64,000 nt of DNA from Gemmatimonadota bacterium. GTDB lineage: Bacteria; Gemmatimonadota; Gemmatimonadetes; Gemmatimonadales; GWC2-71-9. Position numbers and translations under genes: made by a program. Of the stretch, positions 1 through 63,847 are shown one piece after another. The notes below the pieces were generated by a model, which searched no databases, was not told where the DNA came from, and saw only the letters and a list, made by a program, of their open reading frames with translations. The number at the start of each line of letters is the position of its first letter. The stretch's first letter is position 1. The DNA is taken from the NCBI GenBank assembly GCA_016713435.1, contig JADJPD010000010.1, positions 167,040 through 231,039 on the forward strand. Direction: 5' to 3'.

Positions 1-522
1 GCCCGTCCCCGACTCGCCGGTGATGAGCACCCGCGCGTCGGTCGGCGCCACCTGCGCCACCAGCTGCCGCACCCGCGCGATCGGCTCGCTCGTCCCCACC
101 ATCTCGTCCCGGGGCGCCAGCGCCTGGCGCAGCGCCTTGTTCTGGGTCCGCGCCTTCCCGAGCTCGAGCGCCGCCCGCAGCGTCACCAGCACCGCCTCCG
201 GCGACAGCGGCTTCTCCAGGAACTGGAACGCGCCGAGCTGCGCCGCCCGCACCGCGTCGGCCAGCTGCGCCTTGCCGCTCATCATGATGACCGGCGTCTC
301 GAGCCCCCGCTCCCGCAGCTGCCGCAGCGTCTCGATCCCGTCGGGGCCCGGCGGCATCAGGAAGTCGAGGAAGATCGCCTCCGGCTCCAGCTTCTCGAGC
401 AGGATGAGCCCCGCCGACCCGTTCCCCGCCTCCTCCACCCCGAACCCCTCGGCGCGCAGCAGCGCCCCGAGCATCCGGCGGATGTTCGGCTCGTCGTCGA
501 TGATGAGCACGCGTGAGGGCAT
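1..522 (-). CDS. Sigma-54-dependent NtrC-family response regulator, N-terminal part (gene runs off the window start)
   Basis: Own minus-strand translation from ATG at 522: MPSRVLIIDDEPNIRRML...IFLDFLMPPGPDG (receiver domain with acceptor Asp) ...MVGTSEPIARVRQLV...ARVLITGESGTG (start of AAA+ Walker A). Lies 27 nt downstream of the kinase stop. Confidence 0.85.
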   Translation of the reverse strand, partial: MPSRVLIIDDEPNIRRMLGALLRAEGFGVEEAGNGSAGLILLEKLEPEAIFLDFLMPPGPDGIETLRQLRERGLETPVIMMSGKAQLADAVRAAQLGAFQFLEKPLSPEAVLVTLRAALELGKARTQNKALRQALAPRDEMVGTSEPIARVRQLVAQVAPTDARVLITGESGTG

Positions 523-549
523 GGCCGGAATCTACCTGTGGAGGGGCAC

Positions 550-1752
550 TCAGCGGGGTCGGCGCACCGGCAGGGTCACGACGAACGTGGCGCCGCCGCC
601 CGGCGTGTCCTCGAGGCGGATGCGCCCCCCGTGCGCCTCCACCGTCTGCCGCACCAGCGCCAGGCCGAGCCCCTGGCCGCCTTCCTTCCCGCCCGTCACG
701 TACGCATCGAAGAGCGTCTCGCGGAGCGCCGGCGCCACCCCCGGCCCATGATCCACGATCCGCACCTCGGCCCCGTCGGGCCCGAGCGGCGCGCAGCTCA
801 CCTCCAGCACCAGCGGCCCCGTGGCCGCTTCCACCGCGTTCCGGAGCAGGTTGCCGAACGCGCGCCGCAGCGGCTCGTAGTGCCCCGTGATCCGGGGCGT
901 CGTGGGGTCGAGCGTCAGCGTGGTGCGCACACCGCGCGGCAGGCTGGTCCGCACCAGCTCCGCCACCAGCTCGCCCAGGTCCACCTCGCTGGCCGGGCCC
1001 TCCGTCAGGCGGCCCATCTCGGTGAACTCCCGCGCCAGCTGCTCCAGCCGCGCCGACTCCGCCTGCAGCACCTCCAGCGACTCCTGCTGCTCCGGCCGGG
1101 CCGAGCGCGCGAGCGCCGACACCGCGAAGCGGATGGGCGTGAGCGGGTTCTTCATCTCGTGCGCCACCCGCCGCGCCACCTCGCGGAAGGCGCGGAGCCG
1201 CTCCGCCTCCAGCTGCCGCGTCCGCGCCTCCGCCAGGCCCCGCGCCATCTCCCGGAACGCCCCCCGCAGCGCCGCGAACTCCGGCGCGCCCCCCTCGCGC
1301 GGCTCCGCCGGCAGTGGCTCCTCCCGCTGGATGAGGCCGGTCCACTGCACCAGTTCATCAATCGGCTTGGTGAGCTGCCGCGAGAGATACCCGCCGAGCC
1401 GCACCGAGAGGTACAGCACCAGCGCCCCGAGCCCCAGGATGATGGCCGCGAGCGTCGGGGCGTAGTACGCCGCCAGCGTCTCGCTCCGCTGCACCCGCGA
1501 GAGCGCCTCGTTGAGCGCGCGGGTGTGCTGGGCCAGCGCCTCCCGCTCTCCCCGCGACAGCCGCGTGGAATCGATGGTCTGCACCAGCGCCCGGCCCGTC
1601 GCCGCCACCTCGGCCACGGCCTGGCGGGTGGTCTCCGCCGGGCTCGCGGGCGAGCGCACCGTGAGCGCCCACCCGATCACCGCGATGGCCGCCGGCACCG
1701 TGCCGAGGGCGATGAGCGCGTAGAGGATCCGCCGGCGGAAGGGGAGGGCCAT
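550..1752 (-). CDS. Sensor histidine kinase (2 TM + HAMP + HisKA + HATPase)
   Basis: ORF 550..1752, 400 aa. H-box [13 protein letters not shown]-box LLRNAVEA, G-boxes DHGPGV and [10 protein letters not shown]. Two hydrophobic segments flank a periplasmic stretch. Confidence 0.9.
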
Positions 1753-1755
1753 GTC

Positions 1756-3006
1756 CTAATCTACTGTCGGGCGGGGCGCCCCACCCCAGGTCCGCGCCAC
1801 CACCCAGCCGAGCAGCCCGCCGAGGAGGCTCCCCGCCCAGAGACTCGGCGCCGCGAGCGGGATCCCCGCCAGCCGCGTCGCGATCCCGAGCCCGAGCGAC
1901 ACCGGCAGGCAGAGCACCAGCACCGCGCTCCCCCGCCGCGTGGCCCACCCCACCCAGTAGCCGGCCGGCAGCAGCAGCAGCCCCAGCGCCAGCGCCTCCA
2001 CCACCCACGACGAGGGCATGATGCGCCGCACGAACGGGTTGAGCGTGGTCACGATCCAGGCCGGCGACCGCGCCCAGCGGTGCTCCTGCGTTACGTGCCC
2101 CGACGTGGCGCGGAGGAACAGCTCCCCCCGCCGGTGCCCCGCCGCGATGTGCACCGTGTCCCCCGGCCGGCTGCCCGGGAAGGCCGGCAGGTGCACCGTC
2201 TGGCCCGCCAGCTCCACTTCCTCGAGGCCGGTCCGCTCGGCAAAGGAGAGCCCCTGCTCGTCCTGCAGCAGCGCCAGGATCTGCTGCTGGTTCTCGTCGA
2301 AGATGCTCAGGATCGGCGCGGGCCCCGCGGGCGCCGGGCCGCTCACCACCGTGGCCCGCACCACCAGCGAGTCGCCGAGCAGCACCGCGCGGAGCCGCTC
2401 CGAGTCGTTCACCCGCCCGTTGGGGAAGGGGACGCCCGCCACGAACGACTCGAGCAGCTCCCCCTCGTAGATCTCGAACTGCCCCAGCTCCGCCACGTGC
2501 TGCCCCCAGTACACCGTGTGCGGCATCGAGGGCCGCACCCCCACCGCGCCGAAGGCCACCACCAGCAGCCACGCCGCCATGGCCCCCGCGGCGAGCTGCG
2601 CCGCGCGCCGCGCCGTCGGCCGCAGCAGCGCCATCCCCTGCTCGGCGAGCAGGATGCCGAGCAGGCCGCCCAGCGTGTTGGTGAGGAGGTCCCGCAGGCT
2701 GGCATCGCGCCCCACCAGCGCCAGCCATTGCGTCCCCTCGATGCCGAAGGTGGCCAGCACGCAGAGCAGCGCGGTGATCCCCCGCGGCAGCCACAGCCGG
2801 AGCACCAGCCCGAGCGGGACGAACATCACCACGTTCAGGATGGCGTCCCGGAGCCCCTCCACCCCGCAGGGATACAGGCACAGGAAGGCGCTCCGCGCCG
2901 CCGCCTCGGCATCCGCGGGCGCCGGCCGCAGCGTCAGCCACGCGATGGCCAGCACCACCACCCCGGTGAGGAGCGGGCCCACCCATCGTCGTGGTGTCCC
3001 TGCCAC
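1756..3006 (-). CDS. VanZ-like family membrane protein with extended C-terminal TM region
   Basis: ORF 1756..3006, 416 aa. VanZ-like N-terminus (LNVVMFVPLGLVL...RDASLRDLLTNTLGGLLG) and multiple TM helices. Its stop is 3 nt from the kinase start, so probably one operon. Confidence 0.6.
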   Translation of the reverse strand: MAGTPRRWVGPLLTGVVVLAIAWLTLRPAPADAEAAARSAFLCLYPCGVEGLRDAILNVVMFVPLGLVLRLWLPRGITALLCVLATFGIEGTQWLALVGRDASLRDLLTNTLGGLLGILLAEQGMALLRPTARRAAQLAAGAMAAWLLVVAFGAVGVRPSMPHTVYWGQHVAELGQFEIYEGELLESFVAGVPFPNGRVNDSERLRAVLLGDSLVVRATVVSGPAPAGPAPILSIFDENQQQILALLQDEQGLSFAERTGLEEVELAGQTVHLPAFPGSRPGDTVHIAAGHRRGELFLRATSGHVTQEHRWARSPAWIVTTLNPFVRRIMPSSWVVEALALGLLLLPAGYWVGWATRRGSAVLVLCLPVSLGLGIATRLAGIPLAAPSLWAGSLLGGLLGWVVARTWGGAPRPTVD

Positions 3007-3049
3007 ACGCCCTCCCTTAATGTCCCCGGAAATCCAGCGCTTGCGCGCG

Positions 3050-3065
3050 TGGCACTATAACTGCA
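3050..3065 (+). promoter_or_regulatory. Candidate sigma-54 (-24/-12) promoter
   Basis: TGGCACTATAACTGCA. GG and GC are separated by exactly 10 nt as in the TGGCACG-N4-TTGCW consensus. Lies 55 nt upstream of ATG 3120. Confidence 0.55.
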
Positions 3066-3119
3066 CTATCCTCGACTCGGATAGTCAGTCCGTTTCCCCA
3101 ATCCGTCCCCGGTACCCCG

Positions 3120-7749: not shown

Positions 7750-7875
7750 GTGTCCCGGAGGTGTTGTAGCTACACCACGACACCCGCCCGTCATCAGGAC
7801 TTCATGTAGTCGGCACCGGTTTCCTAAGTTGTTGTTTCACAAGGCCTTGACGTCGTGGCACGCGGCGCCGGATTC

Positions 7876-7891
7876 TGGCCTGAACCCTGCA
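7876..7891 (+). promoter_or_regulatory. Candidate sigma-54 (-24/-12) promoter
   Basis: TGGCCTGAACCCTGCA with correct GG-N10-GC spacing. Lies 42 nt upstream of ATG 7933. Confidence 0.45.
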
Positions 7892-8470: not shown

Positions 8471-9220
8471 ATGATCAAGACCGGTCGACTCCTGGCTCTC
8501 GCGAGTGCGCTCGCCGTGGGCCTCCCGGCGGCGGCATACGCCGACGGGTTCCAGAGTTACAAGGTGTGCGGGGGGCTGAACTTCAGCACCTGCGCCGCCG
8601 TCAGCATCAACGTGGTCGGCAGCAGCGTGACCGTGCGCGTGTGGAACCTCTCCGGCAACGGGGCGGCCACCTACGGCGTCGGCTCCACCGTCGCGGCCAA
8701 CACCGTCTTCAACGGCATCGGCTTCTACAACACCGGCGGCGTCAGCGCCGTCAGCGGCACCCTGCAGACCACCGGTCCGGTCCGCGCGGGTGACACGCCC
8801 TCCGGCTGGGGCCTCCAGAACAACGCCACCCTCGGCTTCTCGGTGGACTGGAAGACCATCTCCCCGGGCAAGGGCGGCGCCAACGGTATCGCCAGCGGCT
8901 GCGCGGCCATCCCGACCAACATCGAGGTCTGGCAGAACCCCTGCACCGGCAACCTGGGCAACACCGCCGACTACGTCACCTTCTCGTTCCAGATCTCCGG
9001 CACCTGGGATCCGACCACGAGCGACGTCGTCCTCCGCGGCATCAACCCGGTGAGCGGCTCCTCGACGGAGTGCTGGACCGGCAACAGCCCGAATGGGGCG
9101 CCGTCCACCTGCACCACCGTCACCCCGGAGCCCGTGACCATGTCGCTCCTCGCGACCGGTCTCGCCGGGATGGGTGGCGCCGGCTTCCTCCGCCGTCGCA
9201 AGCAGAAGCAGACCGCCTGA
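8471..9220 (+). CDS. PEP-CTERM sorting-domain secreted protein (exosortase substrate)
   Basis: ORF 8471..9220. Signal peptide MIKTGRLLALASALAVGLPAAAYA. C-terminal VTPEPVTMSLLATGLAGMGGAGFLRRRKQK is the classic PEP motif + TM helix + Arg cluster. Confidence 0.9.
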   Translation: MIKTGRLLALASALAVGLPAAAYADGFQSYKVCGGLNFSTCAAVSINVVGSSVTVRVWNLSGNGAATYGVGSTVAANTVFNGIGFYNTGGVSAVSGTLQTTGPVRAGDTPSGWGLQNNATLGFSVDWKTISPGKGGANGIASGCAAIPTNIEVWQNPCTGNLGNTADYVTFSFQISGTWDPTTSDVVLRGINPVSGSSTECWTGNSPNGAPSTCTTVTPEPVTMSLLATGLAGMGGAGFLRRRKQKQTA

Positions 9221-13514: not shown

Positions 13515-13594
13515 TCGCGCTGCAGTTTCCCGAGATCAGGAAGAAGCCATGAGGTACGAAGGGATGCCGTCTCAACGGCGCGGTATGTGGGCGC

Positions 13595-16001: not shown

Positions 16002-16014
16002 AAGGGGGGGTCAC

Positions 16015-18045: not shown

Positions 18046-18061
18046 AGCAATGTCGGTGCCA
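18046..18061 (-). promoter_or_regulatory. Candidate sigma-54 (-24/-12) promoter, minus strand
   Basis: The reverse complement reads TGGCACCGACATTGCT (one mismatch to TGGCACG-N4-TTGCW). Points toward the GT2 operon (start 17896), about 150 nt away. Confidence 0.6.
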
Positions 18062-18065: not shown

Positions 18066-18081
18066 CGGCCCCGAAATTGCT
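18066..18081 (+). promoter_or_regulatory. Candidate sigma-54 (-24/-12) promoter, plus strand
   Basis: CGGCCCCGAAATTGCT with correct spacing. Lies 55 nt upstream of GTG 18136. Near-identical to the minus-strand element at 30252..30267. Confidence 0.4.
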
Positions 18082-24351: not shown

Positions 24352-24367
24352 TGGTATGCCATTTGCG
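24352..24367 (+). promoter_or_regulatory. Candidate sigma-54 (-24/-12) promoter
   Basis: TGGTATGCCATTTGCG with correct spacing. Lies ~107 nt upstream of ATG 24474. Confidence 0.5.
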
Positions 24368-28748: not shown

Positions 28749-28749
28749 G

Positions 28750-30251: not shown

Positions 30252-30267
30252 AGCAACTTCGGGGCCC
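30252..30267 (-). promoter_or_regulatory. Candidate sigma-54 (-24/-12) promoter, minus strand
   Basis: The reverse complement reads GGGCCCCGAAGTTGCT. Correct spacing; 14 of 16 positions identical to the element at 18066..18081. Lies ~160 nt upstream of ATG 30094. Confidence 0.4.
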
Positions 30268-34922: not shown

Positions 34923-35113
34923 GGCGGCCCAAGATGCCGCATCGCGGCGCCGGCGGCAATGGCGCGCGGGCGCCTCGGTATGGCGCGGGTGCGGCTGGCG
35001 TTGTGGCGTCGGGACACCAGACGGCCAGGGGCCAGGGGATCGAGTCGCCCGAGCAGCGCTCGGGCTGCTCCGGGAGGTGCGGGCGGCGACGGGGCGTCCG
35101 GCGGGGACCTGGC

Positions 35114-35129
35114 TGGCACCCCTCTTGCG
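35114..35129 (+). promoter_or_regulatory. Candidate sigma-54 (-24/-12) promoter
   Basis: TGGCACCCCTCTTGCG (one mismatch to consensus). Lies 66 nt upstream of ATG 35195. Confidence 0.6.
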
Positions 35130-37043: not shown

Positions 37044-37068
37044 CAAGACGTTGTCAGACAATGTCTTG
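37044..37068. promoter_or_regulatory. Near-perfect 12-1-12 palindrome upstream of a -24/-12 element
   Basis: CAAGACGTTGTC-A-GACAATGTCTTG (11 of 12 arm positions pair). Lies 50-75 nt upstream of the element at 37118. Confidence 0.4.
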
Positions 37069-37117: not shown

Positions 37118-37133
37118 TGGCATTTGGTTTGCC
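37118..37133 (+). promoter_or_regulatory. Candidate sigma-54 (-24/-12) promoter
   Basis: TGGCATTTGGTTTGCC with correct spacing. Lies ~100 nt upstream of ATG 37232, in a 380-bp lower-GC intergenic region. Confidence 0.55.
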
Positions 37134-48997: not shown

Positions 48998-49013
48998 TGG
49001 AACGCCTCTTGCC
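48998..49013 (+). promoter_or_regulatory. Candidate sigma-54 (-24/-12) promoter
   Basis: TGGAACGCCTCTTGCC (one mismatch). Lies 94 nt upstream of ATG 49107. A perfect 10-bp-stem hairpin (49055..49079) lies in the predicted leader. Confidence 0.55.
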
Positions 49014-50198: not shown

Positions 50199-50292
50199 TT
50201 CCCGGGCATTTCTGGGTTGCCGGCGCCACAGGTCATGCCGGACCGTGGCGCCCGCGCCACAGCTGGACGGGGCAATCGCTACTATGGTTGGT

Positions 50293-50308
50293 GGGTATGG
50301 GGTTTGCT
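50293..50308 (+). promoter_or_regulatory. Candidate sigma-54 (-24/-12) promoter
   Basis: GGGTATGGGGTTTGCT with correct spacing. Lies 62 nt upstream of ATG 50370 (AGGAG Shine-Dalgarno). Confidence 0.45.
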
Positions 50309-51626: not shown

Positions 51627-51642
51627 GGGCATGTAGATTGCC
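51627..51642 (+). promoter_or_regulatory. Candidate sigma-54 (-24/-12) promoter
   Basis: GGGCATGTAGATTGCC with correct spacing. Lies ~103 nt upstream of GTG 51745. A 9-bp-stem hairpin at 51699..51721 lies in the leader. Confidence 0.45.
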
Positions 51643-51744
51643 CCTCGGCAGGCGTGGTGCGGGTGCAAGGCCTTGTGCCCATGCCACTTACGATCCAGCC
51701 CCCCGGGCCACGCCCGGGGGGCCACCCTTGCGAGTGGGAGCACC

Positions 51745-53585
<1,841 letters not shown>

Positions 53586-53592
<7 letters not shown>

Positions 53593-54341: not shown

Positions 54342-55645
54342 GCCGGGTGACCATCTCCCCCGACGCACTGGTGCGCCTGACGCAGATCGCCGGTGAGGCG
54401 GGCTGCGCCATCCTGGGCCACTACGGCAAGGGCGGCCCCGTCGAGACCAAGGGCGACAACAGCCCCGTGACCCTGGCCGACAAGGCGGCGCACGCCAAGA
54501 TCTCGGCCGCGCTCGCGGCGTGGGATCCGACGATCCCGGTGATCTCCGAGGAAGGGGAGATCCCCGGCCCCGAGGGGCGCGCGGGGTGGCGCCGGTTCTG
54601 GCTGGTGGACCCGCTCGACGGGACCAAGGAGTTCATCCAGCAGAACGGCGAGTTCACGGTGAACATCGCCCTGATCGAGGACGGGGTGCCGGTGCTCGGC
54701 GTGATCTACGCCCCGGCGCTGGACCTGCTCTACTACGCGGGGCAGGGCCTCGGCAGCTGGAAGCGCGAGAAGGGCGGGGCGCCGGTGCGGATCTTCTCCC
54801 GGCCGCCGCTGCCGCAGCATGCGCTCCGGGTGGCGGAGAGCCGGTCGCACCCGTCGAAGGAACTCGAGGAGTACCTCGCGACCATCCTCGTGGCGGAGCG
54901 GGTGCCGGCGGGGAGCTCGCTCAAGTTCTGCTGGGTGGCGGAGGGGAAGGCGGACATCTACCCGCGGCTCGGCCCCACCATGGAGTGGGACGTGGCCGCC
55001 GGCGACTGCATCTTCCGGAACTCGGGTGAGAAGAAGCCGCGCGCTTCCTCGCTGGTGTACAACCAGCCGGCGCTCAAGAACCCCGGCTTCGTCATCGGCC
55101 TCGACGACAGCGCGCTCGAGACGGGGAGCGGCGAGGGGCGGGTGGTGTGGTTCACCGGGCTCTCGGGCTCGGGGAAGAGCACCATCGCGCGGCAGGTGGT
55201 GGCAGCGCTCGAGGCGCGGGGCGAGGCGGTGGAGTACCTCGACGGCGATGCCATCCGCGACATCTTCCCCGCCACCGGCTTCACGCGGCCGGAGCGGGAC
55301 GCGCACATCCGCCGGGTGGGTTGGGTGGCGAGCCGGCTGGAGCGGCACGGGGTGACGGTGATCGCGTCGCTGGTGTCGCCGTACGAGGAGTCGCGCCGGT
55401 TCGTGCGCGGGCTCTGCCGGCACTACCACGAGGTGTACGTGAGCACCTCGTTCGACGAGTGCGCCCGGCGCGACGTGAAGGGGCTGTACGCGAAGGCGCT
55501 CAAGGGCGAGATCAAGCACTTCACGGGCCTCGACGACCCGTACGAGCCGCCGGCCACGCCGGAGCTCACCATCGACACGACCAACCTCCCGGTGGACGCG
55601 GCCGTCCAGCGGGTGCTGGCGTACCTGGACGGAGGCAGGGCATGA
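54338..55645 (+). CDS. Fusion: 3'(2'),5'-bisphosphate nucleotidase (CysQ-like) + adenylylsulfate kinase (CysC)
   Basis: Frame of ORF 54062..55645. ATGA overlap. N-terminal part: SPVTLADK..., [22 protein letters not shown]-terminal part from ~55140: [39 protein letters not shown]. Confidence 0.85.
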
Positions 55646-56541
55646 CCACGACCGTGACCATGGATCACCTGGACCAGCTGGAGCACAAGAGCGTCCACAT
55701 CTTCCGTGAGGCGTACGCCAGCTTCAAGAACTTGTGCATGCTCTGGTCCATCGGGAAGGACTCGACGGTCCTCCTCTGGCTGGCGCGGAAGGCCTTCTAC
55801 GGCCACGTGCCGTTCCCGCTGGTGCACATCGACACCAGCTTCAAGATCCCGGAGATGATCCGCTACCGCGACCGGCTGGCCGCGGAGTGGAACCTGAACC
55901 TGATCTACGGCCAGAACGTGAAGGCGCTGGAGGAGAAGCGCACCTTCCCCGACGGCGCGGTGGACCGGATCACCTGCTGCGGCCTGCTCAAGACCGAGGC
56001 GCTCAAGAAGACGCTCTCGGGCGAGTGGCCGCGGTGGAAGTTCAACCACGCCAAGAAGGCGTACGAGGTCGACAAGAACACCGAGCCGTACACCGGCGTG
56101 ATCGTGGGCGCGCGCGCGGACGAGGAAGGCAGCCGCTCCAAGGAGCGCTACTTCTCCCCCCGCAACCAGCAGTCCACCTGGGACGTCGGCGACCAGCCGC
56201 CCGAGTTCTGGAACCAGTACAAGACGGAGTTTGCGCCGGGCACGCACCTGCGCATCCACCCGCTGCTCGACTGGACCGAGCTCAACATCTGGGAGTACAT
56301 CCAGCGGGAGAACATCCCCACGGTGTCGCTGTACTACGACCAGGGCACCGGGATCCGCTACCGCTCGCTCGGCTGCGGCCCGTGCACCAAGGCGGTGGAG
56401 AGCACCTCGCGGAACGTCGAGGAGATCATCATCGAGCTCAAGACCGGCAAGTTCGCCAACATCGCCGAGCGGAGCGGGCGCGCCCAGGACAAGGACGACG
56501 GCGGCGGGCTCGAGACGCTGCGGCGCGACGGGTACATGTAA
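55642..56541 (+). CDS. cysD: Sulfate adenylyltransferase subunit 2
   Basis: Frame of ORF 55147..56541. ATGA overlap. [11 protein letters not shown]..., [56 protein letters not shown]. Confidence 0.9.
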
Positions 56542-56543: not shown

Positions 56544-57689
56544 ATGGACTTCGGCTTCCGCCCCGAGCAGCTCGAGTTCCGGCAGGCCACGCTCGAGTTT
56601 GCCCGGAAGAGCCTGCAGGACGACCTCCCCGCGCGCGAGAAGCGCGGGGAGTTTTCGCGCGCGCTGTGGCGCGCGTGCGGGGAGTTCGGGATCCAGGGGC
56701 TGCCCTTCCCGGAGCAGTACGGCGGCGGCGGCCAGGACGTCCTCACCACCATCCTGGCCATGGAGGCCCTCGGCGAGGGGTGCGCCGACAACGGCCTGCT
56801 CTTCGGACTGGCGGCGCAGATGTGGTCGGTGCAGATGCCCCTCTGGCGCCACGGCACCGAGGCCCAGCGGGAGCGCTGGCTCCCCGCGCTCTGCCGCGGT
56901 GAGCTGATCGGCGCCCACGGCATGAGCGAGCCCGACTCCGGCTCCGACGCCTTCGCCCTCCGCACCGTCGCCGAGAAGCGGGGCGACTGCTACGTGCTGA
57001 CGGGCACCAAGACGTTCGTGAGCGAGGCGCCGGTGGCGGACGTCTTCGTGGTCTTCGCCACCCTCGACCGGGAGAAGGGGCCGCTCGGCCTCACCGCCTT
57101 CCTGGTGGAGCGGGACACGCCCGGCTTCCGGGTGGGGCGCGGCATCGAGAAGATGGGGCTCAAGACCTCGCCGATGGCGGAGCTCATCCTCGAGGAGTGC
57201 GTGGTGCCCGCCGCCAACCGGCTGGGCCGCGAGGGGCGCGCGGCGCAGATCTTCAACGACTCCATGGAGTGGGAGCGGGGCTGCATCCTGGCCTTCAACC
57301 TGGGGACGCAGGCCCGGCTGCTCGACAGCTCCATCCGCTACTGCCGCGAGCGGCAGCAGTATGGCCAGAGCATCGGGAAGTTCCAGGCGGTGGCCGGCCG
57401 GCTGGTGGACATGAAGCTCCGGCTCGAGGCCAGCCGGCTGCTGCTCTACCGCGCGGCGTGGGCCAAGGAGCGGGGCCAGGACGCGGGGCTCTGGGCCGCG
57501 CTCTCCAAGCTGTACGTGAGCGAGGCCATGCTGGCGACCAGCCTCGATGCCGTGCAGGTGCGCGGCGGCTACGGTTTCACCACCGAGTACGAGGTGGAGC
57601 GCGACCTGCGCGACGCCGTGGGCGGAACCCTCTATTCCGGCACCACCGAGATCCAGCGCAACCTCATTGCCCGGAGCCTCGGGCTCTAG
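56544..57689 (+). CDS. Acyl-CoA-dehydrogenase-family flavoprotein
   Basis: Frame of ORF 55734..57689. GAHGMSEPDSGSD, TGTKTFVSEA, GIEKMGLKTSPMAEL, QFGQSIGKFQAV-like (QYGQSIGKFQAVAGRL), GGYGFTTEYEVERDLRDA, YSGTTEIQRNLI. Confidence 0.85.
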   Translation: MDFGFRPEQLEFRQATLEFARKSLQDDLPAREKRGEFSRALWRACGEFGIQGLPFPEQYGGGGQDVLTTILAMEALGEGCADNGLLFGLAAQMWSVQMPLWRHGTEAQRERWLPALCRGELIGAHGMSEPDSGSDAFALRTVAEKRGDCYVLTGTKTFVSEAPVADVFVVFATLDREKGPLGLTAFLVERDTPGFRVGRGIEKMGLKTSPMAELILEECVVPAANRLGREGRAAQIFNDSMEWERGCILAFNLGTQARLLDSSIRYCRERQQYGQSIGKFQAVAGRLVDMKLRLEASRLLLYRAAWAKERGQDAGLWAALSKLYVSEAMLATSLDAVQVRGGYGFTTEYEVERDLRDAVGGTLYSGTTEIQRNLIARSLGL

Positions 57690-57729
57690 CAAGCCGCCCG
57701 GGGCGGGGCACGGCCCCGGCACGGGGTGC

Positions 57730-57745
57730 GTTGCGGCGCCGCAAC
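57730..57745. promoter_or_regulatory. Perfect 16-bp palindrome ~105 nt upstream of a -24/-12 element (candidate enhancer/UAS)
   Basis: GTTGCGGCGCCGCAAC, in the 219-bp gap between the ACAD-like stop and the MBOAT start. Confidence 0.4.
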
Positions 57746-57847
57746 ATGCCGCATTCCCGCCCGGCCCTTCCGAGATATTCCTACCGCATCTTACCGCCAG
57801 ACAATGAGTTAGCTGGAGACCACCGGGCTGCCGGAATCGCCCGGGGA

Positions 57848-57863
57848 TGGCACGGCTTTGGCT
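57848..57863 (+). promoter_or_regulatory. Candidate sigma-54 (-24/-12) promoter
   Basis: TGGCACGGCTTTGGCT: perfect -24 box, -12 box TGGC instead of TTGC. Lies 46 nt upstream of ATG 57909. Confidence 0.45.
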
Positions 57864-57908
57864 AAATCCCGTGCATCACGTCCCGACGCTGGGGCCTCCA
57901 CACTCAGG

Positions 57909-60473
57909 ATGCGCATGACGTCACCGACCGCCCCGGCCGCGCCGACCGGGACCACCGCCGCACTGTCGCCCGAGGTCGCCGAGTCGCGCGTGAGTGCGGC
58001 GTCCCTGGCGCGGGTGGGGATCCTGGCGCTGCAGCTGGCCCTCACGGCGCTGGTGGTCCGCGAGCTCCGCATCGAGAGCTTTGCGCTCTACACGGTGATG
58101 GTGGTGGCGGCGGTGGCGTTCCCGGTGCACGCGCTGCTGGCGCCGGTGCTCCGGATGCGGGCGTTTGCGGTCATCTCGGTGGCCGGGCTGGTGCTGGTGC
58201 TGCAGCCCAAGGCGGCGCTGGCGGTGTTCGGGATCGGGGCGGTGCTGGTGGGGCTGGTGCAGCTGCCGGTGCGCTGGGGCGTGAAGCTGGCGCTCCTCTC
58301 GGTGGCCGGGGTGGGGCTGGCGCTGCTCCGCACGGGGACCATCCCGTCGCCGCTGCCGCACGCGCTGTGGCCGGTGCTCGGCGCCATCTTCATGTTCCGC
58401 CTGGCGCTGTATGCGCACGCGTGGCGGCACAAGGAGGCGCCCACGGGGTTCTGGCCCACGCTCGGCTACTTCGCCATGCTGCCGAACGTGGCGTTCCCGC
58501 TCTTCCCGGTGGTGGACTACAAGGCGTTCATCAGGAACCACTACGACGCGCCCGACTTCCTGATCTACGAGCGCGGCATGCGGTGGATCGCCCGGGGCGT
58601 GGTGCACCTGGCGCTCTACCGCCTGGTGTACCACCACGTGACCATGGACCCGCTCGACGTGCGGAGCCTGGGCCAGCTGGTGCAGTTCACCCTCAGCACC
58701 TTCCTGCTCTACCTCCGGGTCTCCGGCCAGTTCCACCTCATCGTGGGCGTGCTGCACCTCTTCGGCTTCAACCTGCCGGAGACGCACCACCTCTATTACC
58801 TGGCCTCGAGCTTCACCGACCTCTGGCGCCGCATCAACCTGTACTGGACCAACTTCATGATGAAGCTGGTCTACTACCCGGCGTTCTTCCGGCTCCGGAA
58901 GCACGGGCAGGAGACGGCGCTGCTGCTGAGCACCGCCATCGTGTTCCTGATGACCTGGCTGCTGCACGCCTACCAGACCTTCTGGCTGCTCGGCGCGCCG
59001 CACTTCACCGTGCCGGATGCGCTCTTCTGGGGCATCCTCGGCGTGCTGGTGCTGGTGACCACGGTCTACGAGAAGCGCCGGGCGCGCCGGCCCGCCCAGC
59101 GCCGGTGGGAGCTGGGCCGGGCGCTGCAGGTGATCGGGGTGTTCACGGGCATGAGCCTGCTCTGGTCGCTCTGGAGCAGCGAGTCGGTGACGGAGTGGGC
59201 CAGCCTGTTCCATGCGGCCGGCCAGACCAGCACCAGCGAGGTGCTGGCCCTCGGCGCGCTGCTCGCCCTCGCGCTCGTGGTGGCGGGATATCCCTGGGGC
59301 GCGGCGACGCTCGCCGCCGCGCCGGAGCCCGCCCCCGCGCTCGGTGCGCAGCTTCGCGCCGGTGGGCTGCGGCTGGCGCTGCTCGGCTCGGTGGCGGCGC
59401 TGGGGCAGCCGGCGGTGCGCTCGGCGCTGCCGCTCGCCCTCCGGCCCTACGCCGAGAGCGTGGGCGAGCCCGGCCTCAACGCGCGGGACGAGGCCATGCT
59501 CCAGCGCGGCTACTACGAGCAGCTCAACGCGGCCGACCGCACCGGCGGCCAGGTGTGGAACGCGGTGGCGGAGCGGCCGCGGGGCTGGGGGGCGGGCCTG
59601 ATGGAACTGGGCTGGACCCGGCCCGTGCCGGGCGTGCTCCTGGCGGAGCTGCCCCCCGACCTGCACCAGACCTACAAGGGCCAGCCGTTCACCACCAACG
59701 CGTGGGGCATGCGCGACCAGGCCTACACCCTCGAGAAGCCGGTTGACACCTACCGGGTCGCGGTGCTGGGCCCGTCGCTGGTGATGGGCTACGGCATCGG
59801 CGACGGCGAGCCGTTCGAGGCCCAGCTCGAGGCCATGCTCGCGGCGGAGGGCACGCACCCGAGGGTGGAGCTGCTCAACTTCGCGTTCGAGGGGCACAGC
59901 CTGACGCAGCAGCTGGCCACCTTCCGGCAGCGGGCGGCGCAGTTCCGCCCCGACCTGGTGCTGGTGACGCTCACGCCCATCGAGCACCGGGTGGCGGCCG
60001 AGCACGTGCGGCGGCTGATGGCGGCGGGGGCGTCGGTGGAGGTGCCGTACCTGGCGCGCGTCATCGAGCAGGCCGGGATCACGAGCGCCGACCGGCACGC
60101 CGACGTGGTGCGGCGGCTCCGGCCGTATGACGAGGACCTGATGCACCACGCGCTGCGCGCGCTGGTGGAGCAGATCGCCGAGGCGGGCGCCCGGCCGGCG
60201 CTGATGCTGGTGCGGATGCCCACGCAGCCGGCCGGCCCGCTGGCGCGGAGCGCGGAGCTCGCGGCCGAGGCCGGCTTCACCGTGCTCGACCTGTCCCACG
60301 CCTACGACGGCCACGAGGAGAACCAGCTCCGCGTGGGTCCGTGGGACCGCCACCCCAATGCCGAGGCCAACCGGCTGCTCGCCGTGGCGCTGCAGCACGA
60401 GCTCCAGCGGACCCGCCTCCTCCCGACATCGACCCCCGACCCGGTTTCCCCCGTTCCCTCCGGAGCCCGCTGA
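57909..60473 (+). CDS. MBOAT-family membrane O-acyltransferase fused to a C-terminal SGNH/DltD-like domain
   Basis: ORF 57858..60473 (start ATG 57909 or 57915). AlgI/DltB-like YFAMLPNVAFPLFPVVDY, LFGFNLPETHHLYYLASSFTDLWRRINLYW. C-terminal domain YRVAVLGPSLVMGYG (block I) ... PWDRHPNAEANRLLA (block V). Confidence 0.8.
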   Translation: MRMTSPTAPAAPTGTTAALSPEVAESRVSAASLARVGILALQLALTALVVRELRIESFALYTVMVVAAVAFPVHALLAPVLRMRAFAVISVAGLVLVLQPKAALAVFGIGAVLVGLVQLPVRWGVKLALLSVAGVGLALLRTGTIPSPLPHALWPVLGAIFMFRLALYAHAWRHKEAPTGFWPTLGYFAMLPNVAFPLFPVVDYKAFIRNHYDAPDFLIYERGMRWIARGVVHLALYRLVYHHVTMDPLDVRSLGQLVQFTLSTFLLYLRVSGQFHLIVGVLHLFGFNLPETHHLYYLASSFTDLWRRINLYWTNFMMKLVYYPAFFRLRKHGQETALLLSTAIVFLMTWLLHAYQTFWLLGAPHFTVPDALFWGILGVLVLVTTVYEKRRARRPAQRRWELGRALQVIGVFTGMSLLWSLWSSESVTEWASLFHAAGQTSTSEVLALGALLALALVVAGYPWGAATLAAAPEPAPALGAQLRAGGLRLALLGSVAALGQPAVRSALPLALRPYAESVGEPGLNARDEAMLQRGYYEQLNAADRTGGQVWNAVAERPRGWGAGLMELGWTRPVPGVLLAELPPDLHQTYKGQPFTTNAWGMRDQAYTLEKPVDTYRVAVLGPSLVMGYGIGDGEPFEAQLEAMLAAEGTHPRVELLNFAFEGHSLTQQLATFRQRAAQFRPDLVLVTLTPIEHRVAAEHVRRLMAAGASVEVPYLARVIEQAGITSADRHADVVRRLRPYDEDLMHHALRALVEQIAEAGARPALMLVRMPTQPAGPLARSAELAAEAGFTVLDLSHAYDGHEENQLRVGPWDRHPNAEANRLLAVALQHELQRTRLLPTSTPDPVSPVPSGAR

Positions 60474-60474
60474 C

Positions 60475-60729
60475 ATGCCCGACGTGATCCCGCAGGTGAA
60501 GCAGTACATCCTGGACCACCACCTCCCGGGTGAGAACCCGGCCAACCTCACGCTGACGACGCCGCTCGTCTCGGGGGGCATCCTCGACTCGCTGGCCACG
60601 CTGGACCTGGTGGCGTTCCTCGAGGGGCGCTTCGGCATCGAGCTCGAGGCGCACGAGGTGGACCGCGACCGGCTGGACACGCTCGAGAAGATCGCCGAGC
60701 TGGTGCAGGGCAAGCTGGCGCGGGTGTAG
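60475..60729 (+). CDS. Acyl/peptidyl carrier protein
   Basis: In ORF 60358..60729. MPDVIPQVKQYILDHHL...GGILDSLATLDLVAFLE (DSL phosphopantetheine site). 84 aa. Confidence 0.85.
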   Translation: MPDVIPQVKQYILDHHLPGENPANLTLTTPLVSGGILDSLATLDLVAFLEGRFGIELEAHEVDRDRLDTLEKIAELVQGKLARV

Positions 60730-60730
60730 G

Positions 60731-62324
60731 GTGACGACCGGGCTGCTGCACCCCGGCGTCCTGGCCGCCGCGCACCGCCATCCCGAGCGGGTGGCGGCCA
60801 CGGAGGCGGGCATGGAACCGATCCGCTACCGCGCGCTCGAGGCGCTGAGTGCCCGGGTGCGCGACTGGCTGGTGGCCCAGGGCGTGCGCCCCGGCGACCG
60901 GGTGGGGCTCTACCTGCCCAAGACCATCGACGCGGTGGCCGCGCTGCTCGGCGTGCTCCGCGCGGGGGCGGCGTACGTGCCGGTGGACCCGGGGAGCCCG
61001 CCGTGGCGCGCGGCGTACATCCTGAACGACTGCGCGGTGCGCGCCGCGATCGTGGACCAGGCGCTGCTCGCGGCGCTGGCGCCGGAACTGGCCACGCTCG
61101 GCGCGGCGCCGGCGCTGCTCCAGCTCGACGGGCCGGGGGGCGGGGTGGCGCTCGACGCGGCGCTGGCCCGCGCCGGCGCCCCGGCGGCGGCGGATGCCAC
61201 GGGCCTCACGCCCGCGTCGCTGGCGTACATCCTCTACACCTCGGGCTCCACGGGGAAGCCGAAGGGCGTGACGATCAGCCACGAGGCGGCGCTCGCGTTC
61301 GTGGACTGGTGCGCGGCGCGCTTCCAGCCGCGGCCCGAGGACCGCTTCTCCTCGCACGCGCCCTTCCACTTTGACCTCTCGGTGCTGGACCTGTACGTGC
61401 CGCTGCACCATGGCGCGTCGGTGACGCTCATCGGGGAGGACCTGGGGAAGGACCCGCTCAAGCTGGCGCAGCTCATCGCGGCGGAGCGGCTCACCGTCTG
61501 GTACTCGACGCCGTCCATCCTCAACATGCTGGTGCAGTACGGCCACCTGGACCGCTACGATCTCGAGGCGCTCCGGCTGGTGCTCTTCGCGGGCGAGGTG
61601 TTCCCGCTGCCGCAGTTCCGCGCGCTCAAGGCGCTGGTGCCGCATCCCGGCTACCACAACCTCTACGGCCCCACCGAGACCAACGTCTGCACCGCCTACG
61701 AGGTCCCGGCGGTGGTGCCGGCGGACCGGGTGGACCCGTTCCCGATCGGCGAGGTGTGCGCGCACTACCGGGGGCGGGTGGTGGATCCCGACGGGCGGGA
61801 CGTGGCGCCGGGCGCGGAGGGCGAGCTGGTCATCGCCGGCCCGGGGGTGATGAGCGGCTACTGGAACCTCCCCGAGCGGAACGCCGCCGCCTTCCTCGTG
61901 GATGATGCGGGCACGCGGTGGTATCGTACAGGCGACCTGGTGGTGGACGAGGGGGATGGCTGCCTGGTCTTCCACGGCCGCGCCGACCGGATGGTGAAGC
62001 GGCGCGGCTACCGCATCGAGCTCGGGCGAGATCGAGGCGGGGCTGGCCCGGCACGACGCGGTGCGCGAGGTGGCGGTGGTGGCCAGCGCGGACCCGGCTG
62101 CCGGCGTCCGGATCACGGCGTTCCTGAGTGCCCGCGCCGGGGTGACGGCGCCGTCGCTCATCGCGCTCAAGCAGTACGCGGTCGAGGCCCTGCCGCGCTA
62201 CATGGCGCCCGATGCCTATCGCTGGCTCGACGCCATCCCGCGCACCTCCACCGACAAGACCGACTACCAGCGGCTCAAGCAGCTCGCCGATCCCGCCCCG
62301 GGAGGTGTGCCGGCGGGCCGTTGA
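60731..62324 (+). pseudogene. Stand-alone NRPS-type adenylation enzyme (DltA-like AMP-dependent ligase); frame break ~62021-62027
   Basis: LAYILYTSGSTGKPKGV, NLYGPTETNV, YRTGDL, GRADRMVKRRGYRIELG (ORF 60731 frame) -> EIEAGLARHDAVREVAVV...IPRTSTDKTDY (ORF 62061..62324). Confidence 0.8.
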
Positions 62325-62377
62325 GCGCCCGCCGCCACCCTGGAGCCGTCGCTGCCCCTTCTCCTCCTGTCCATCGC

Positions 62378-63775
62378 GTGAGCGTCAACCGCGCCTTCCT
62401 GGCCCTCGGCGCGGGTGAGGCGCTCGCGCGCCTGCTCGGCTTTGCCGCCACGCTGGTGATGGCCCGCGCCCTCGGCGCCTCGGGCTACGGCATCGTGGGC
62501 GTGGCGATGGCCGTGACGCTCTACCTCAACCGCATCAGCGACCTCGGCTTCGACCTGAGCCTCGGCGTGCGCGAGGTGGCGGCGGATCACGGCTTCCTCG
62601 GGCGCGGCCTCACGGCGGTGGTGGCGGCGCGGCTCCTGGTGGCGGTGGGGCTCATCCTGCTGGTGCTGCTGGTGGGCCACCTGGTGCTGCCCGCCCCCGA
62701 CAGCACGGTGCTCGCGGTGCAGACGCTGACCCTGCTGGCGGTGGGGGGCGGGGTGCGGTGGGCGCTGGTGGGCCTCGGGCACACGCGGGCGGCCGCGGTG
62801 GGGATGATCGTCGGCCAGGCGCTGATGGCCCTGCTGGTGCTGGCCCTGGTGCGCGGCCCCGGCGACCTCGCGGTGGTGCCCGGCGCGCAGGTGGCCGGTG
62901 ACCTCGTGGCCGCGCTCGTCTTCGTGCTCGTCCTGCCGGCCGCGCTCCGCCGGCTCCCGGTGCGCCTCGACTGGCCGCTGGTGCGGGGGCTCCTGCCGCG
63001 CGCCAGTTCGGTGGTGACGAGCGCCCTGCTCGGCATCCTGATCTACAACGCCAATTTCTTCCTGCTCCGCGGCTTCCACGGCACCACGGTGGTGGGGTGG
63101 TATGCGGCGGGGTACACGCTGGTCACCTTCTTCCTGAACCTGGGCCAGGCGTACAACCTGAGCCTGCTGCCCGCGCTCACGCGGCTGCGGGCCGACCGGG
63201 AGGCGGCCGGCGCGCTGTTCCAGAAGAGCATGGCGGAGGTCTTTGCGCTCACGCTCCCGCTCGCGCTCGGCGGGTCGCTGCTGGCGGGGCCGCTCATTGC
63301 GCTCTTCTACGGGCCGGGCTACGCGCCGACGGCGCTGCCCTTCAGCATCCTGATCTGGACCCTGCCGCTCTGCTTCCTCCGCGACGTGCCCATCATGGGC
63401 CTCTATGCGGCGGGGGAGGAGCGGCAGGTGTTCCGCCTCACCCTGTTGTCCGCCGTGCTCAACCTGGGCCTCAATGCGGTGCTGATTCCCCGCTTCGGCG
63501 CCCCCGGGGCGGCGGCGGCCACCCTGTCCACCGAGGCCCTCCGGGCGGCCCTGGCCATCCAGGCGGTGCGCCGGCTCCACCTCGTTCCGCCCGGTCTGGG
63601 GCGGTTCGCCAAGGCCCTGGCGGCGGCGGGGGTGATGGGGGCGGTGGTGGTGGGCCTCGGGGGGTGGTCGGTCTGGCTGCTGGTGCCCCTTGGCGCGGTG
63701 GCCTACGTGACCACCCTGTGGGCGGTGGGCGGGGTCCGGGTGGGGGGTGGGGCGGGTCCGGCCCTCACGGTCTAA
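62378..63775 (+). CDS. MOP-superfamily polysaccharide flippase (Wzx/MurJ-like)
   Basis: Distal part of ORF 60731..63775 from GTG 62378. VSVNRAFLALGAGEALARLLGFAATLVMARALG... About 12-14 TM helices. Confidence 0.8.
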   Translation: MSVNRAFLALGAGEALARLLGFAATLVMARALGASGYGIVGVAMAVTLYLNRISDLGFDLSLGVREVAADHGFLGRGLTAVVAARLLVAVGLILLVLLVGHLVLPAPDSTVLAVQTLTLLAVGGGVRWALVGLGHTRAAAVGMIVGQALMALLVLALVRGPGDLAVVPGAQVAGDLVAALVFVLVLPAALRRLPVRLDWPLVRGLLPRASSVVTSALLGILIYNANFFLLRGFHGTTVVGWYAAGYTLVTFFLNLGQAYNLSLLPALTRLRADREAAGALFQKSMAEVFALTLPLALGGSLLAGPLIALFYGPGYAPTALPFSILIWTLPLCFLRDVPIMGLYAAGEERQVFRLTLLSAVLNLGLNAVLIPRFGAPGAAAATLSTEALRAALAIQAVRRLHLVPPGLGRFAKALAAAGVMGAVVVGLGGWSVWLLVPLGAVAYVTTLWAVGGVRVGGGAGPALTV

Positions 63776-63831
63776 CCCCTTTCGGCAGTTCAGGTTCGGG
63801 ATTCGTCCCCTGCCTCCATTCTGGCCCCGCG

Positions 63832-63847
63832 CGGCACGGCCATTGCT
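63832..63847 (+). promoter_or_regulatory. Candidate sigma-54 (-24/-12) promoter
   Basis: CGGCACGGCCATTGCT (only the first T is mismatched). Lies 64 nt upstream of ATG 63911. Confidence 0.55.

Follow-up and report, generated by a model that had tools for sequence, protein, structure and literature searches.

Predicted sigma-54 promoters head eleven transcription units of an exopolysaccharide and PEP-CTERM locus in an uncultured Gemmatimonadota bacterium

Results

The 64-kb stretch of DNA analyzed here (contig JADJPD010000010.1, positions 167,040 to 231,039; hereafter the window) is an exopolysaccharide (EPS)/PEP-CTERM locus of an uncultured Gemmatimonadaceae bacterium. We propose that eleven transcription units, holding about two-thirds of the coding DNA of the locus, start from -24/-12 promoters of sigma-54 (RpoN), and that an adjacent NtrX-like regulator is most likely their activator; we put the probability of this reading at roughly 75%. 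The promoter sites are present far above chance expectation, are specific in spacing and orientation, are conserved at orthologous positions in relatives and co-occur with a recurring palindrome. That RpoN would use these sites in vivo, and that the palindrome would be bound by an enhancer-binding protein, we infer from the sequence. Gemmatimonadota are abundant in soils and, to our knowledge, their gene regulation has hardly been studied by experiment.

Sigma-54 sites stand out by position, spacing and orientation

The whole window was scored, position by position and on each strand, with a 16-column matrix for sigma-54 sites that follows the Barrios-type consensus TGGCACG-N4-TTGCW. An earlier note on this DNA had listed 13 sigma-54 elements, and all 13 strings were found exactly where it had placed them, on the strands it gave, each with GG-N10-GC. 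Eleven of them are strong, occupying 11 of the 12 best matrix ranks over both strands (11.3-16.7 bits); the other two, 18066 (+) and 30252 (-), score no better than background. The position and orientation claimed for the elements hold for the strong ones: all eleven lie in gaps, are directed at a gene and end 41-149 nt 5' of the first plausible start codon (Table 1). That a site occurs in nearly every sizeable gap was overstated, since, of the 25 gaps that measure 100 nt or more on a generous gap map, 11 have a strong one.

The comparison of intergenic with coding match density that the same note had suggested, carried out on both strands of the window, gave 11 matches of at least 11 bits in intergenic DNA (10.7 kb, generously defined) and one in coding DNA (53 kb); matches below 11 bits are nearly all in coding DNA. 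Dinucleotide shuffles of the intergenic regions (n = 1000) produced 1.40 +/- 1.18 matches of at least 11 bits, and none of the 1000 reached 11. When the two blocks alone were scored in intergenic DNA at a threshold of 12 bits, the 4-nt spacer yielded 11 matches, compared with 0-3 for spacers of 0-3 and 5-9 nt. A matrix-free count, with GG and GC fixed and at least 10 of 12 consensus letters matching, found six intergenic and no coding instances, and at eight or fewer matching letters the intergenic-to-coding ratio equals the ratio of the DNA itself. The T content of intergenic DNA (15.6%) is close to that of the window (14.7%), so composition is not the cause of the excess. The string TGG-N8-TTGC had been expected to occur a handful of times by chance, which is accurate (6.65 expected), and it was observed 11 times window-wide, not significant alone. 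Since this string is not over-represented across the window, the signal is a positional one and resides in the locations of the good matches. The flanks of the sites are mutually unrelated, so the sites do not form a repeat family.

The sole strong match in coding DNA, at 8930-8945 (+) (TGGCAGAACCCCTGCA, 12.9 bits), is part of the PEP-CTERM coding sequence and specifies the residues WQNPC. This match is similar to the 7876 promoter (…GAACCCTGCA) and is probably a chance match; an internal promoter is the alternative.

Promoter blocks are retained in relatives

Syntenic contigs of relatives were fetched through three anchor proteins, namely the regulator, the radical SAM enzyme and the FAD oxidoreductase. 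For nine of the 11 strong promoters, diverged Gemmatimonadota contigs have an orthologously placed counterpart that preserves the GG and TTGC blocks but differs in the spacer. No orthologous locus was obtained for the other two, 18046 (-) and 24352, which are in the lower-GC, apparently variable part of the locus, and the counterparts of 57848 and 63832 come from close relatives only (92-94% nucleotide identity).

With the regulator as anchor, L004 (77% amino acid identity, on a 472-kb contig) and L006 were obtained. Both carry TGGCATCATAACTGCA upstream of the outer-membrane gene, orthologous to 3050, and L004 has TGGCCCGGACTCTGCA upstream of the HpsJ-like/PEP-CTERM unit, orthologous to 7876. 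The counterparts of 3050 and 7876 are islands of identity within otherwise diverged intergenic DNA. Three long contigs and 80 metagenome loci were retrieved through the radical SAM anchor. Among orthologs with 69% identity or more, most show a site whose end is 38-83 nt 5' of the start codon; its GG and TTGC are preserved and its spacer is unconstrained. A score of 11 bits was reached by 18 of 73 upstream regions on the forward strand and by 5 of 73 on the reverse strand. Counterparts of 48998 were seen in L008, before the small membrane-peptide gene (14.9 bits), and in L090 (14.7 bits). L008 also holds the 51627 counterpart (TGGCATGTGGGTTGCC, 13.4 bits), whose 5' end lies 114 nt (16-mer end 98 nt) before the CysNC start. 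In L009, a complete 4.2-Mb contig with a 74% radical SAM ortholog, that gene overlaps the upstream gene within an operon, and the weak 10.45-bit match 122 nt upstream, inside the upstream gene, is uninformative, as expected.

The FAD oxidoreductase anchor retrieved L090, L091 and L092 (83-85% amino acid identity), and in all three a counterpart of 37118 precedes the glycosyltransferase operon (15.65, 13.55 and 16.46 bits, respectively). This region was anchored on the sites themselves, because the intergenic DNA is too diverged for its MAFFT alignment with L090-L092 to be informative. The counterpart of 35114 at the GT-C promoter of L090 is TGGTATGCCGCTTGCC. The 57848 site is identical in L002, and in L001 it has an altered spacer with intact -24/-12 blocks; 63832 is retained in both and is identical in L001 (a 144-kb contig of a 92% relative), with the VTC and DUF4956 genes next. 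In 37.5 kb of non-EPS DNA flanking the loci in relatives, no match of at least 12 bits was found; the window has 11, and an equal density would predict about 6 in the flanking DNA. The sites appear to be under purifying selection on the -24 and -12 blocks.

Sigma-54 matches in other genomes are also located upstream of deacetylase, GT2 and GT4 homologs. At L091 8218 (-) and L092 4307 (-), a sigma-54-like site (11.4-11.7 bits) precedes a divergent deacetylase-GT2 fusion gene. As this gene is absent at that position of the window, the set of headed units differs between related genomes.

An NtrX-like regulator and its kinase adjoin the locus

Sigma-54 promoters are silent until an ATP-hydrolysing enhancer-binding protein, bound upstream, remodels the closed complex. 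The earlier note had placed a sigma-54-dependent response regulator and its kinase at 1-1752, and the activator family is upheld, with GAFTGA present in orthologs; the part of the regulator inside the window is only 170 aa long. This fragment scores 127 bits as NtrX, 109 as AtoC, 96 as NtrC and 92 as PrsR. Its residues 1-120 match the receiver domains of many regulators, so that a receiver domain is present, and the alignment enters the start of the AAA+ domain. Homologs of 68-78% identity, all from Gemmatimonadota, carry PF00072 and PF00158; G[AS]FTGA occurs in three of them (P0004, P0007 and P0009), and the L004 ortholog has GAFTGA and a second, frameshift-split piece with HTH_8. Judged by these features of its homologs, the protein encoded at 1-510 is probably a sigma-54 enhancer-binding protein. 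Activators with GAFTGA work only with sigma-54.

The regulator-kinase pair is also found next to the outer-membrane and PEP-CTERM genes in L004, so synteny is kept, and no other regulator gene was seen in the NCBIfam and Pfam annotation of the window. Adjacency and conserved synteny thus point to the pair as the most likely activator of these promoters. RpoN is present in the one finished Gemmatimonadetes genome surveyed (PMC3372290, Table 1).

A candidate enhancer lies upstream of several promoters

A recurring 18-bp palindrome, TGTKGC-N6-GCMACA, was first seen by eye after the radical SAM promoters had been aligned on the sigma-54 site. With at most one mismatch it matches the window only twice, at 50244 and 57729. 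Among orthologs of the 50293 region, L010, L011 and L012 have perfect copies 107-131 nt upstream of the promoter, and L015 has a one-mismatch copy at 70 nt. The 57729 element retains its half-sites in L001 and L002, and its 6-nt spacer changes (GGCGCC, ACCCGC, GGCGAC). Less exact candidates precede the 35114 and 7876 promoters. The GT-C promoter of L090 has two copies (one and two mismatches) 58 and 122 nt upstream, and the L004 ortholog of the 7762 element (TGTGGCGTCACGACAACA, one mismatch, 111 nt upstream) is a conserved island in the alignment.

Across 456 kb of high-GC loci plus the window, 16 matches with at most one mismatch were found, and 11 of these sit 49-131 nt upstream of a correctly oriented sigma-54 match of at least 11 bits. 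Instances that came to light only after the pattern had been defined include those in L004, L005 (before a deacetylase gene), L025 and L090. Together with its orthologs, the candidate enhancer is supported at four of the 11 promoters (7876, 35114, 50293 and 57848) and is doubtful at 3050. A k-mer search of the 11 upstream regions returned GC-rich, low-information words only, and GTTGC-N6-GCAAC with two mismatches was not enriched window-wide (43 observed, 33.5 expected). The 25-nt near-perfect palindrome upstream of 37118 (Table 1) differs from TGTKGC-N6-GCMACA and is possibly the site of a separate regulator.

Proposed mechanism

In the mechanism that we propose, RpoN holoenzyme would form closed complexes on the -24/-12 elements, and the phosphorylated enhancer-binding protein, bound about 50-130 bp upstream, would open them using ATP. 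The outcome would be tight on/off control of about two-thirds of the locus, in which the units switched would be those of the outer-membrane barrel, the membrane protein with the PEP-CTERM protein, the glycosyltransferases, the radical SAM enzyme, the 3'-phosphoadenosine 5'-phosphosulfate (PAPS) pathway, the acylation genes (acyl carrier protein and adenylation enzyme) and the VTC-domain gene. Because the closed complex depends on an enhancer-binding protein, we suggest that the headed units are placed under an all-or-none signal.

More tentatively, the locus may exemplify a so far undescribed, phylum-wide sigma-54 surface-polysaccharide regulon of Gemmatimonadota, in which an NtrX-like regulator acting on TGTKGC-N6-GCMACA would jointly switch biosynthesis, sulfation, acylation, PEP-CTERM cargo and an outer-membrane component. 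We regard this wider idea as possible rather than probable. If it were true, the PEP-CTERM/sigma-54 logic of Proteobacteria would here rely on another enhancer and on regulators that are not orthologous, and would take in the biosynthetic operons in addition to the cargo genes.

Evidence against and alternative explanations

Several observations weigh against the proposal of eleven RpoN-dependent units under the adjacent regulator. The sigma-54 matrix, which follows the published consensus, is a scoring device only. The weak sites 18066 (+) and 30252 (-) are within coding-region noise. The earlier note took the whole locus for a sigma-54 regulon, and about one-third of the coding DNA has no strong site, including the Wzy/ATP-grasp/GT4 block (18.1-23.6 kb) and the entire minus-strand block with Wzx and UDP-sugar dehydrogenase (26.1-34.5 kb). 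The regulator fragment in the window stops at residue 170, just within the AAA+ domain, and GAFTGA is visible in orthologs only. The candidate enhancer was spotted by eye in the upstream regions of the radical SAM gene and of 57848, so that its definition is independent only of the copies in L004, L005, L025 and L090; the instances are, in addition, not independent of one another because they are partly orthologous. An unbiased enumeration in the window (5-nt palindromes, spacers of 0-14 nt) was dominated by CCCGG/CCGGG hairpins and did not recover it. Six promoters are without a convincing copy: no copy was found at 18046 (-), 24352, 48998, 51627 or 63832, and 37118 has its different palindrome. 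An enhancer-like match for 3050, at 2990-3007, was rejected, as neither L004 nor L006 conserves it and it falls within N-terminal codons of a divergent VanZ-like gene. Finally, pepA, a PEP-CTERM gene of the betaproteobacterium Aquincola, requires RpoN1, and the EPS biosynthesis genes there reportedly do not (PMC9850573), so sigma-54 control of biosynthetic genes is not a given.

The main competing explanation is that the sigma-54 promoters are real but answer to several enhancer-binding proteins encoded elsewhere, with the adjacent NtrX-like system controlling a subset or something else, so that several signals are integrated and there is no single regulon. We consider this explanation credible, although not one that we would favor. 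It would account for the presence of TGTKGC-N6-GCMACA at only 4-5 of the 11 promoters, for the different strong palindrome at 37044-37068 and for the failure of the k-mer and palindrome searches to return a motif common to all upstream regions; radical SAM orthologs also keep promoter and enhancer where the neighboring genes differ (L007). However, the regulator-kinase pair stays beside the outer-membrane and PEP-CTERM genes in L004, no second regulator gene was seen in the window, and an enhancer may have a degenerate sequence or be located within coding DNA further upstream, where it is inseparable from background.

It is very unlikely that the motif is read by something other than sigma-54, be it another DNA-binding protein or the machinery of a lineage-specific promoter class resembling TGGCAC-N5-TTGC, or that it is a dispersed intergenic repeat. 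The sites 18046 (-), 18066 (+) and 30252 (-), in the low-GC part, are alike in their spacers, which sigma-54 does not require, and we know of no experimental characterization of Gemmatimonadota promoter classes. Against this, the unrelated flanks exclude a repeat family, and conservation is confined to just the GG and TTGC blocks, at canonical spacing, while the spacers drift. A predicted GAFTGA-type activator is, moreover, encoded in the locus, and the palindrome is at enhancer distance.

We give hardly any credence to the possibility that the PrsK/PrsR regulon of PEP-CTERM genes described by Haft et al. (2006) has been transplanted to Gemmatimonadota. The earlier note had linked the locus to the known association of PEP-CTERM genes with NtrC-type regulators, and that link survives insofar as a sigma-54 site heads the PEP-CTERM unit, XrtA-system deacetylase and FemAB genes are present, and a two-component system with a sigma-54 activator adjoins. 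The pair is, however, not PrsK/PrsR. PrsK is a protein of about 679 aa with a family-specific N-terminal membrane domain, and identification of the 400-aa kinase with it was rejected, since it matches TIGR02916 at 84.7 bits (cut-off 300) over profile positions 447-679 only, which is the catalytic end. The regulator fragment, which scores higher as NtrX, reaches 92 bits over its 170 aa against the PrsR equivalog TIGR02915, whose cut-off of 502.6 applies to the full length. TTTACA, the end of the 17-nt motif 1 that Haft et al. placed about 63 nt upstream of the sigma-54 motif and found in Proteobacteria only, does not occur on either strand of the window, where the nearest string is TTTCACA, 41 nt upstream of the 7876 site.

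Chance matches in GC-rich DNA, inflated by a reading of intergenic DNA only, can practically be dismissed: at 72% GC a bare GG-N10-GC turns up very often, TGG-N8-TTGC shows no window-wide excess and two of the 13 sites are at noise level, but the unbiased two-strand scan ranks the noted sites at the top, no shuffle reaches their count, the spacing control is clean and orthologous positions are conserved across relatives of 69-93% identity.

Predicted promoters and the units they would head

The coordinates of the predicted elements are collected in Table 1.

Table 1 Predicted promoters, candidate regulatory sites and associated genes in the 64-kb window.
Feature	Position	Strand	Sequence	Score	Context
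NtrX-like response-regulator-type predicted sigma-54 enhancer-binding protein (NCBIfam), N-terminal 170 aa	1..510	-			Remainder past window edge
Sensor histidine kinase, 400 aa	550..1752	-		AtoS-like, 129 bits	Regulator partner
Predicted sigma-54 promoter	3050..3065	+	TGGCACTATAACTGCA	14.5 bits, rank 4	Ends 54 nt before ATG 3120, 1023-aa outer-membrane beta-barrel
Candidate enhancer	7762..7779		TGTTGTAGCTACACCACG	3 mismatches	114 nt upstream of 7876 promoter
Predicted sigma-54 promoter	7876..7891	+	TGGCCTGAACCCTGCA	12.5 bits	Ends 41 nt before 166-aa HpsJ-like membrane protein gene
PEP-CTERM protein gene	8471..9220	+	Translation, C-terminus ...TPEPVTMSLLATGLAGMGGAGFLRRRKQKQTA		
Predicted sigma-54 promoter	18046..18061	-	TGGCACCGACATTGCT	15.8 bits, rank 2	Ends 149 nt before ATG 17896, GT2 glycosyltransferase
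Weak site	18066..18081	+	CGGCCCCGAAATTGCT	9.1 bits, rank 28	54 nt before Wzy-like gene
Predicted sigma-54 promoter	24352..24367	+	TGGTATGCCATTTGCG	13.3 bits, rank 6	Ends ~100-106 nt before hypothetical gene 24468/24474-25172
Weak site	30252..30267	-	GGGCCCCGAAGTTGCT	8.65 bits, rank 37	3' of Wzx stop
Candidate enhancer	35002..35019		TGTGGCGTCGGGACACCA	2 mismatches	112 nt upstream of 35114 promoter
Predicted sigma-54 promoter	35114..35129	+	TGGCACCCCTCTTGCG	13.7 bits, rank 5	Ends 65 nt before ATG 35195, PMT_2/GT-C membrane glycosyltransferase
25-nt near-perfect palindrome	37044..37068		CAAGACGTTGTCAGACAATGTCTTG		74 nt upstream of 37118 promoter
Predicted sigma-54 promoter	37118..37133	+	TGGCATTTGGTTTGCC	13.0 bits	Ends 98 nt before ATG 37232
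Predicted sigma-54 promoter	48998..49013	+	TGGAACGCCTCTTGCC	13.2 bits	Ends 87-93 nt before conserved 56-59-aa membrane-peptide gene
Candidate enhancer	50244..50261		CGTGGCGCCCGCGCCACA	1 mismatch	49 nt upstream of 50293 promoter
Predicted sigma-54 promoter	50293..50308	+	GGGTATGGGGTTTGCT	12.5 bits	Ends 61 nt before radical SAM/SPASM gene
Predicted sigma-54 promoter	51627..51642	+	GGGCATGTAGATTGCC	11.3 bits	Ends 102 nt before GTG 51745 of CysNC
Candidate enhancer	57729..57746		CGTTGCGGCGCCGCAACA	1 mismatch	119 nt upstream of 57848; includes perfect 16-nt palindrome GTTGCGGCGCCGCAAC
Predicted sigma-54 promoter	57848..57863	+	TGGCACGGCTTTGGCT	16.65 bits, rank 1	Ends 45 nt before ATG 57909
Predicted sigma-54 promoter	63832..63847	+	CGGCACGGCCATTGCT	15.8 bits	Ends ~63-66 nt before ATG of VTC-domain gene extending past window

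Immediately 3' of the 3050 promoter is a hairpin-forming sequence at 3066-3084 (CTATCCTCGACTCGGATAG), the first six bases of which (CTATCC) are invariant in L004 and L006; the 8 nt right upstream of its -24 block (CTTGCGCG) are conserved too. The 7876 promoter heads a two-gene unit with the PEP-CTERM gene, which is probably co-transcribed from it because the gap to the upstream gene is 37 nt, and the unit probably extends past that gene to the XrtA-type deacetylase, FemAB and aminotransferase genes. A long open reading frame (ORF) spans the 35114 promoter, which was taken as intergenic because the codon-position GC pattern indicates coding only after about 35150.

Downstream of 37118 is a same-strand run of genes of about 11.7 kb, comprising GT2, FAD oxidoreductase, two GT4, epimerase and deacetylase genes, followed by GT2, two GtrA-like, sulfatase-family and UbiA-type genes. 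The 51627 unit is the PAPS operon (CysNC, then GT2, CysQ-CysC, CysD and acyl-carrier dehydrogenase), and the 57848 unit encodes the 854-aa membrane protein with a C-terminal SGNH/GDSL domain, then the acyl carrier protein and the adenylation enzyme.

The conserved gene behind the 48998 promoter encodes a hydrophobic peptide of 55-59 aa (e.g. MLNFQLFALYVGPDQLLPITSILGAIGG...) and was found at 49101-49277 in the window, at 9125-9292 in L008 and at 19798-19965 in L090, with a sigma-54 promoter of its own. In the window and in L008 the radical SAM/SPASM gene follows it at a short distance, and in L090 it precedes CysNC. Its product may be either a small membrane protein or a peptide substrate of a radical SAM enzyme.

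The strong site 18046 (-) and the weak site 18066 (+) are back-to-back divergent elements with 4 nt between them. The weak site 30252 (-) is 125 nt upstream of TTG 30127, the start of the longest ORF of a split GT4 gene (28827-30127), whose N-terminal domain is encoded at 29504-30127 (-). In its last 15 nt, 18066 (+) has one difference (A/G) from 30252 (-) and two from 18046 (-); the two weak sites thus agree at 14 of 15 nt (GGCCCCGAA[A/G]TTGCT), and their spacer is also like that of 18046 (-) (GGCACCGACATTGCT). Because sigma-54 itself needs no spacer similarity, this likeness may reflect duplication or a second bound factor.

Gene content and sequence quality of the locus

The window has a G+C content of 72%, and its nearest public DNA (92-94% nucleotide identity) comes from metagenome-assembled genomes of uncultured Gemmatimonadaceae and Gemmatimonadales. 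Genes were called by codon usage and annotated with NCBIfam and Pfam. Besides the genes at the left edge, they include the 1023-aa outer-membrane barrel (CarboxypepD_reg and OMP_b-brl_4 in Pfam), an XrtA-system polysaccharide deacetylase (TIGR03006, 322 bits, over the cut-off), a FemAB-family gene, a DegT-type aminotransferase, a Wzy_C-type ligase/polymerase and a Wzx flippase. Glycosyltransferases are represented by numerous GT2 and GT4 enzymes and one PMT_2/GT-C enzyme. A UDP-sugar dehydrogenase, several acetyltransferases, a UbiA-type phosphoribosyltransferase, a sulfatase-family enzyme and a radical SAM/SPASM enzyme are also encoded, as are the PAPS pathway, an acyl-carrier dehydrogenase and, in the 3' part, the 854-aa membrane protein with its SGNH domain, an acyl carrier protein and an adenylation enzyme. 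An Rfam search of the window returned no RNA family, so the 5' leaders are not known riboswitches.

A complete set of PAPS pathway genes (CysNC, CysQ-CysC fusion and CysD) adjoins a sulfatase-family enzyme and glycosyltransferases (46207-48042 and 51673-56541), which suggests that the polysaccharide is sulfated. The region 56544-63775 resembles an acylation or aminoacylation module: the acyl-carrier dehydrogenase strongly matches L-prolyl-PCP dehydrogenase/PigA (433 bits), and the remainder consists of the 854-aa SGNH/GDSL membrane protein, an 84-aa carrier protein and the 1014-aa adenylation enzyme. The module recalls Dlt-type or OlsHI-type decoration, whose target here would probably be the polysaccharide. 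Genes of what may be an accessory module were found at 63914-64000 in the window, 7777-10386 in L001, 13955-19674 in L092 and 1-2405 in L008. In L092 the VTC and DUF4956 genes are followed by a hypothetical gene and then by a CotH/beta-helix protein, which is encoded in the L008 locus too. This suggests that the VTC/DUF4956/CotH genes are a conserved polyphosphate-related or kinase-related accessory module of the locus.

Two stretches, 12000-20000 and 26000-32000, have a G+C content of 0.65-0.70 compared with 0.72-0.77 elsewhere, and weaker codon-usage scores. They contain the Wzy, Wzx, acetyltransferase and some glycosyltransferase genes, and probably represent a part of the locus that varies and is exchanged horizontally. 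Of the sigma-54 sites, just two strong ones and both weak ones lie there. Genes are apparently split across frames at 22446-23565 (+), 28827-30127 (-), 33139-34959 (-), 37232-38369 (+) and 40064-41238 (+). The N- and C-terminal domains of one GT4 enzyme are in overlapping ORFs (22446-23066 and 22930-23565), a second GT4 gene is split at 29504-30127 and 28827-29519, a GT2 gene is split at 37232-37624 and 37617-38369, and the UDP-sugar dehydrogenase was matched in separated pieces. These are either assembly indel errors or pseudogenes, and they affect the placement of intergenic gaps.

Comparison with known systems

The earlier note knew of no description of per-operon promoter mapping of this kind; that operon-by-operon sigma-54 wiring of a polysaccharide locus is undescribed is not accurate in general. 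The 18-gene syp locus of Vibrio fischeri has four SypG/sigma-54 operons and has been characterized experimentally (PMC10162802). Among the systems compared, it is the closest multi-operon polysaccharide precedent: by functional analogy, both would be polysaccharide clusters in several operons, each headed by a sigma-54 promoter, with a response-regulator activator encoded in the locus. The Gemmatimonadota locus differs in having 11 promoters over 64 kb, compared with four over 18 genes, in belonging to another phylum and in having another candidate enhancer, present at some promoters only (4-5 of 11); it is, furthermore, known from sequence alone. Our results overturn nothing in this respect, as sigma-54 control of polysaccharide loci is already established.

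For PEP-CTERM genes, sigma-54 sites with an enhancer and the PrsK/PrsR pair were predicted in Proteobacteria by Haft et al. (2006; PMC1569441), and the enhancer box was found only there. The window resembles the PrsK-PrsR-PrsT system in its -24/-12 motif before a PEP-CTERM gene, its upstream putative enhancer, its neighboring two-component sigma-54 activator and its EPS context. It differs in that PrsK and the TTTACA box are absent, the regulator fragment is more NtrX-like and sigma-54 sites head biosynthetic operons as well, the last of which also sets it apart from Aquincola. The sigma-54/PEP-CTERM association would thus reach beyond Proteobacteria, with different regulators. Across phyla, EPS, lipopolysaccharide and other envelope pathways show a genomic association with predicted sigma-54 promoters and activators (Francke et al. 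2011; PMC3162934). That is a statistical association over many genomes, whereas the present analysis concerns one Gemmatimonadota locus, with per-operon mapping, orthologous footprints and a candidate enhancer.

The NifA-type upstream activator sequence is TGT-N10-ACA, located about 100 bp upstream of a -24/-12 promoter. The candidate enhancer is likewise a TGT...ACA palindrome upstream of such promoters, but it has the form TGT-N12-ACA with extended half-sites (TGTKGC/GCMACA), and the regulator has a receiver domain and not a GAF domain.

Features that set the locus apart from its precedents are its phylum, its promoter number (11 in 64 kb), its candidate enhancer and the presence of sites ahead of operons for biosynthesis, sulfation and acylation as well as ahead of the PEP-CTERM unit. 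It provides a testable regulatory map, with eleven predicted promoters placed to the base, a candidate enhancer and a candidate sensor-regulator pair, which could be used to find the signal that induces matrix production and to annotate related loci in metagenomes.

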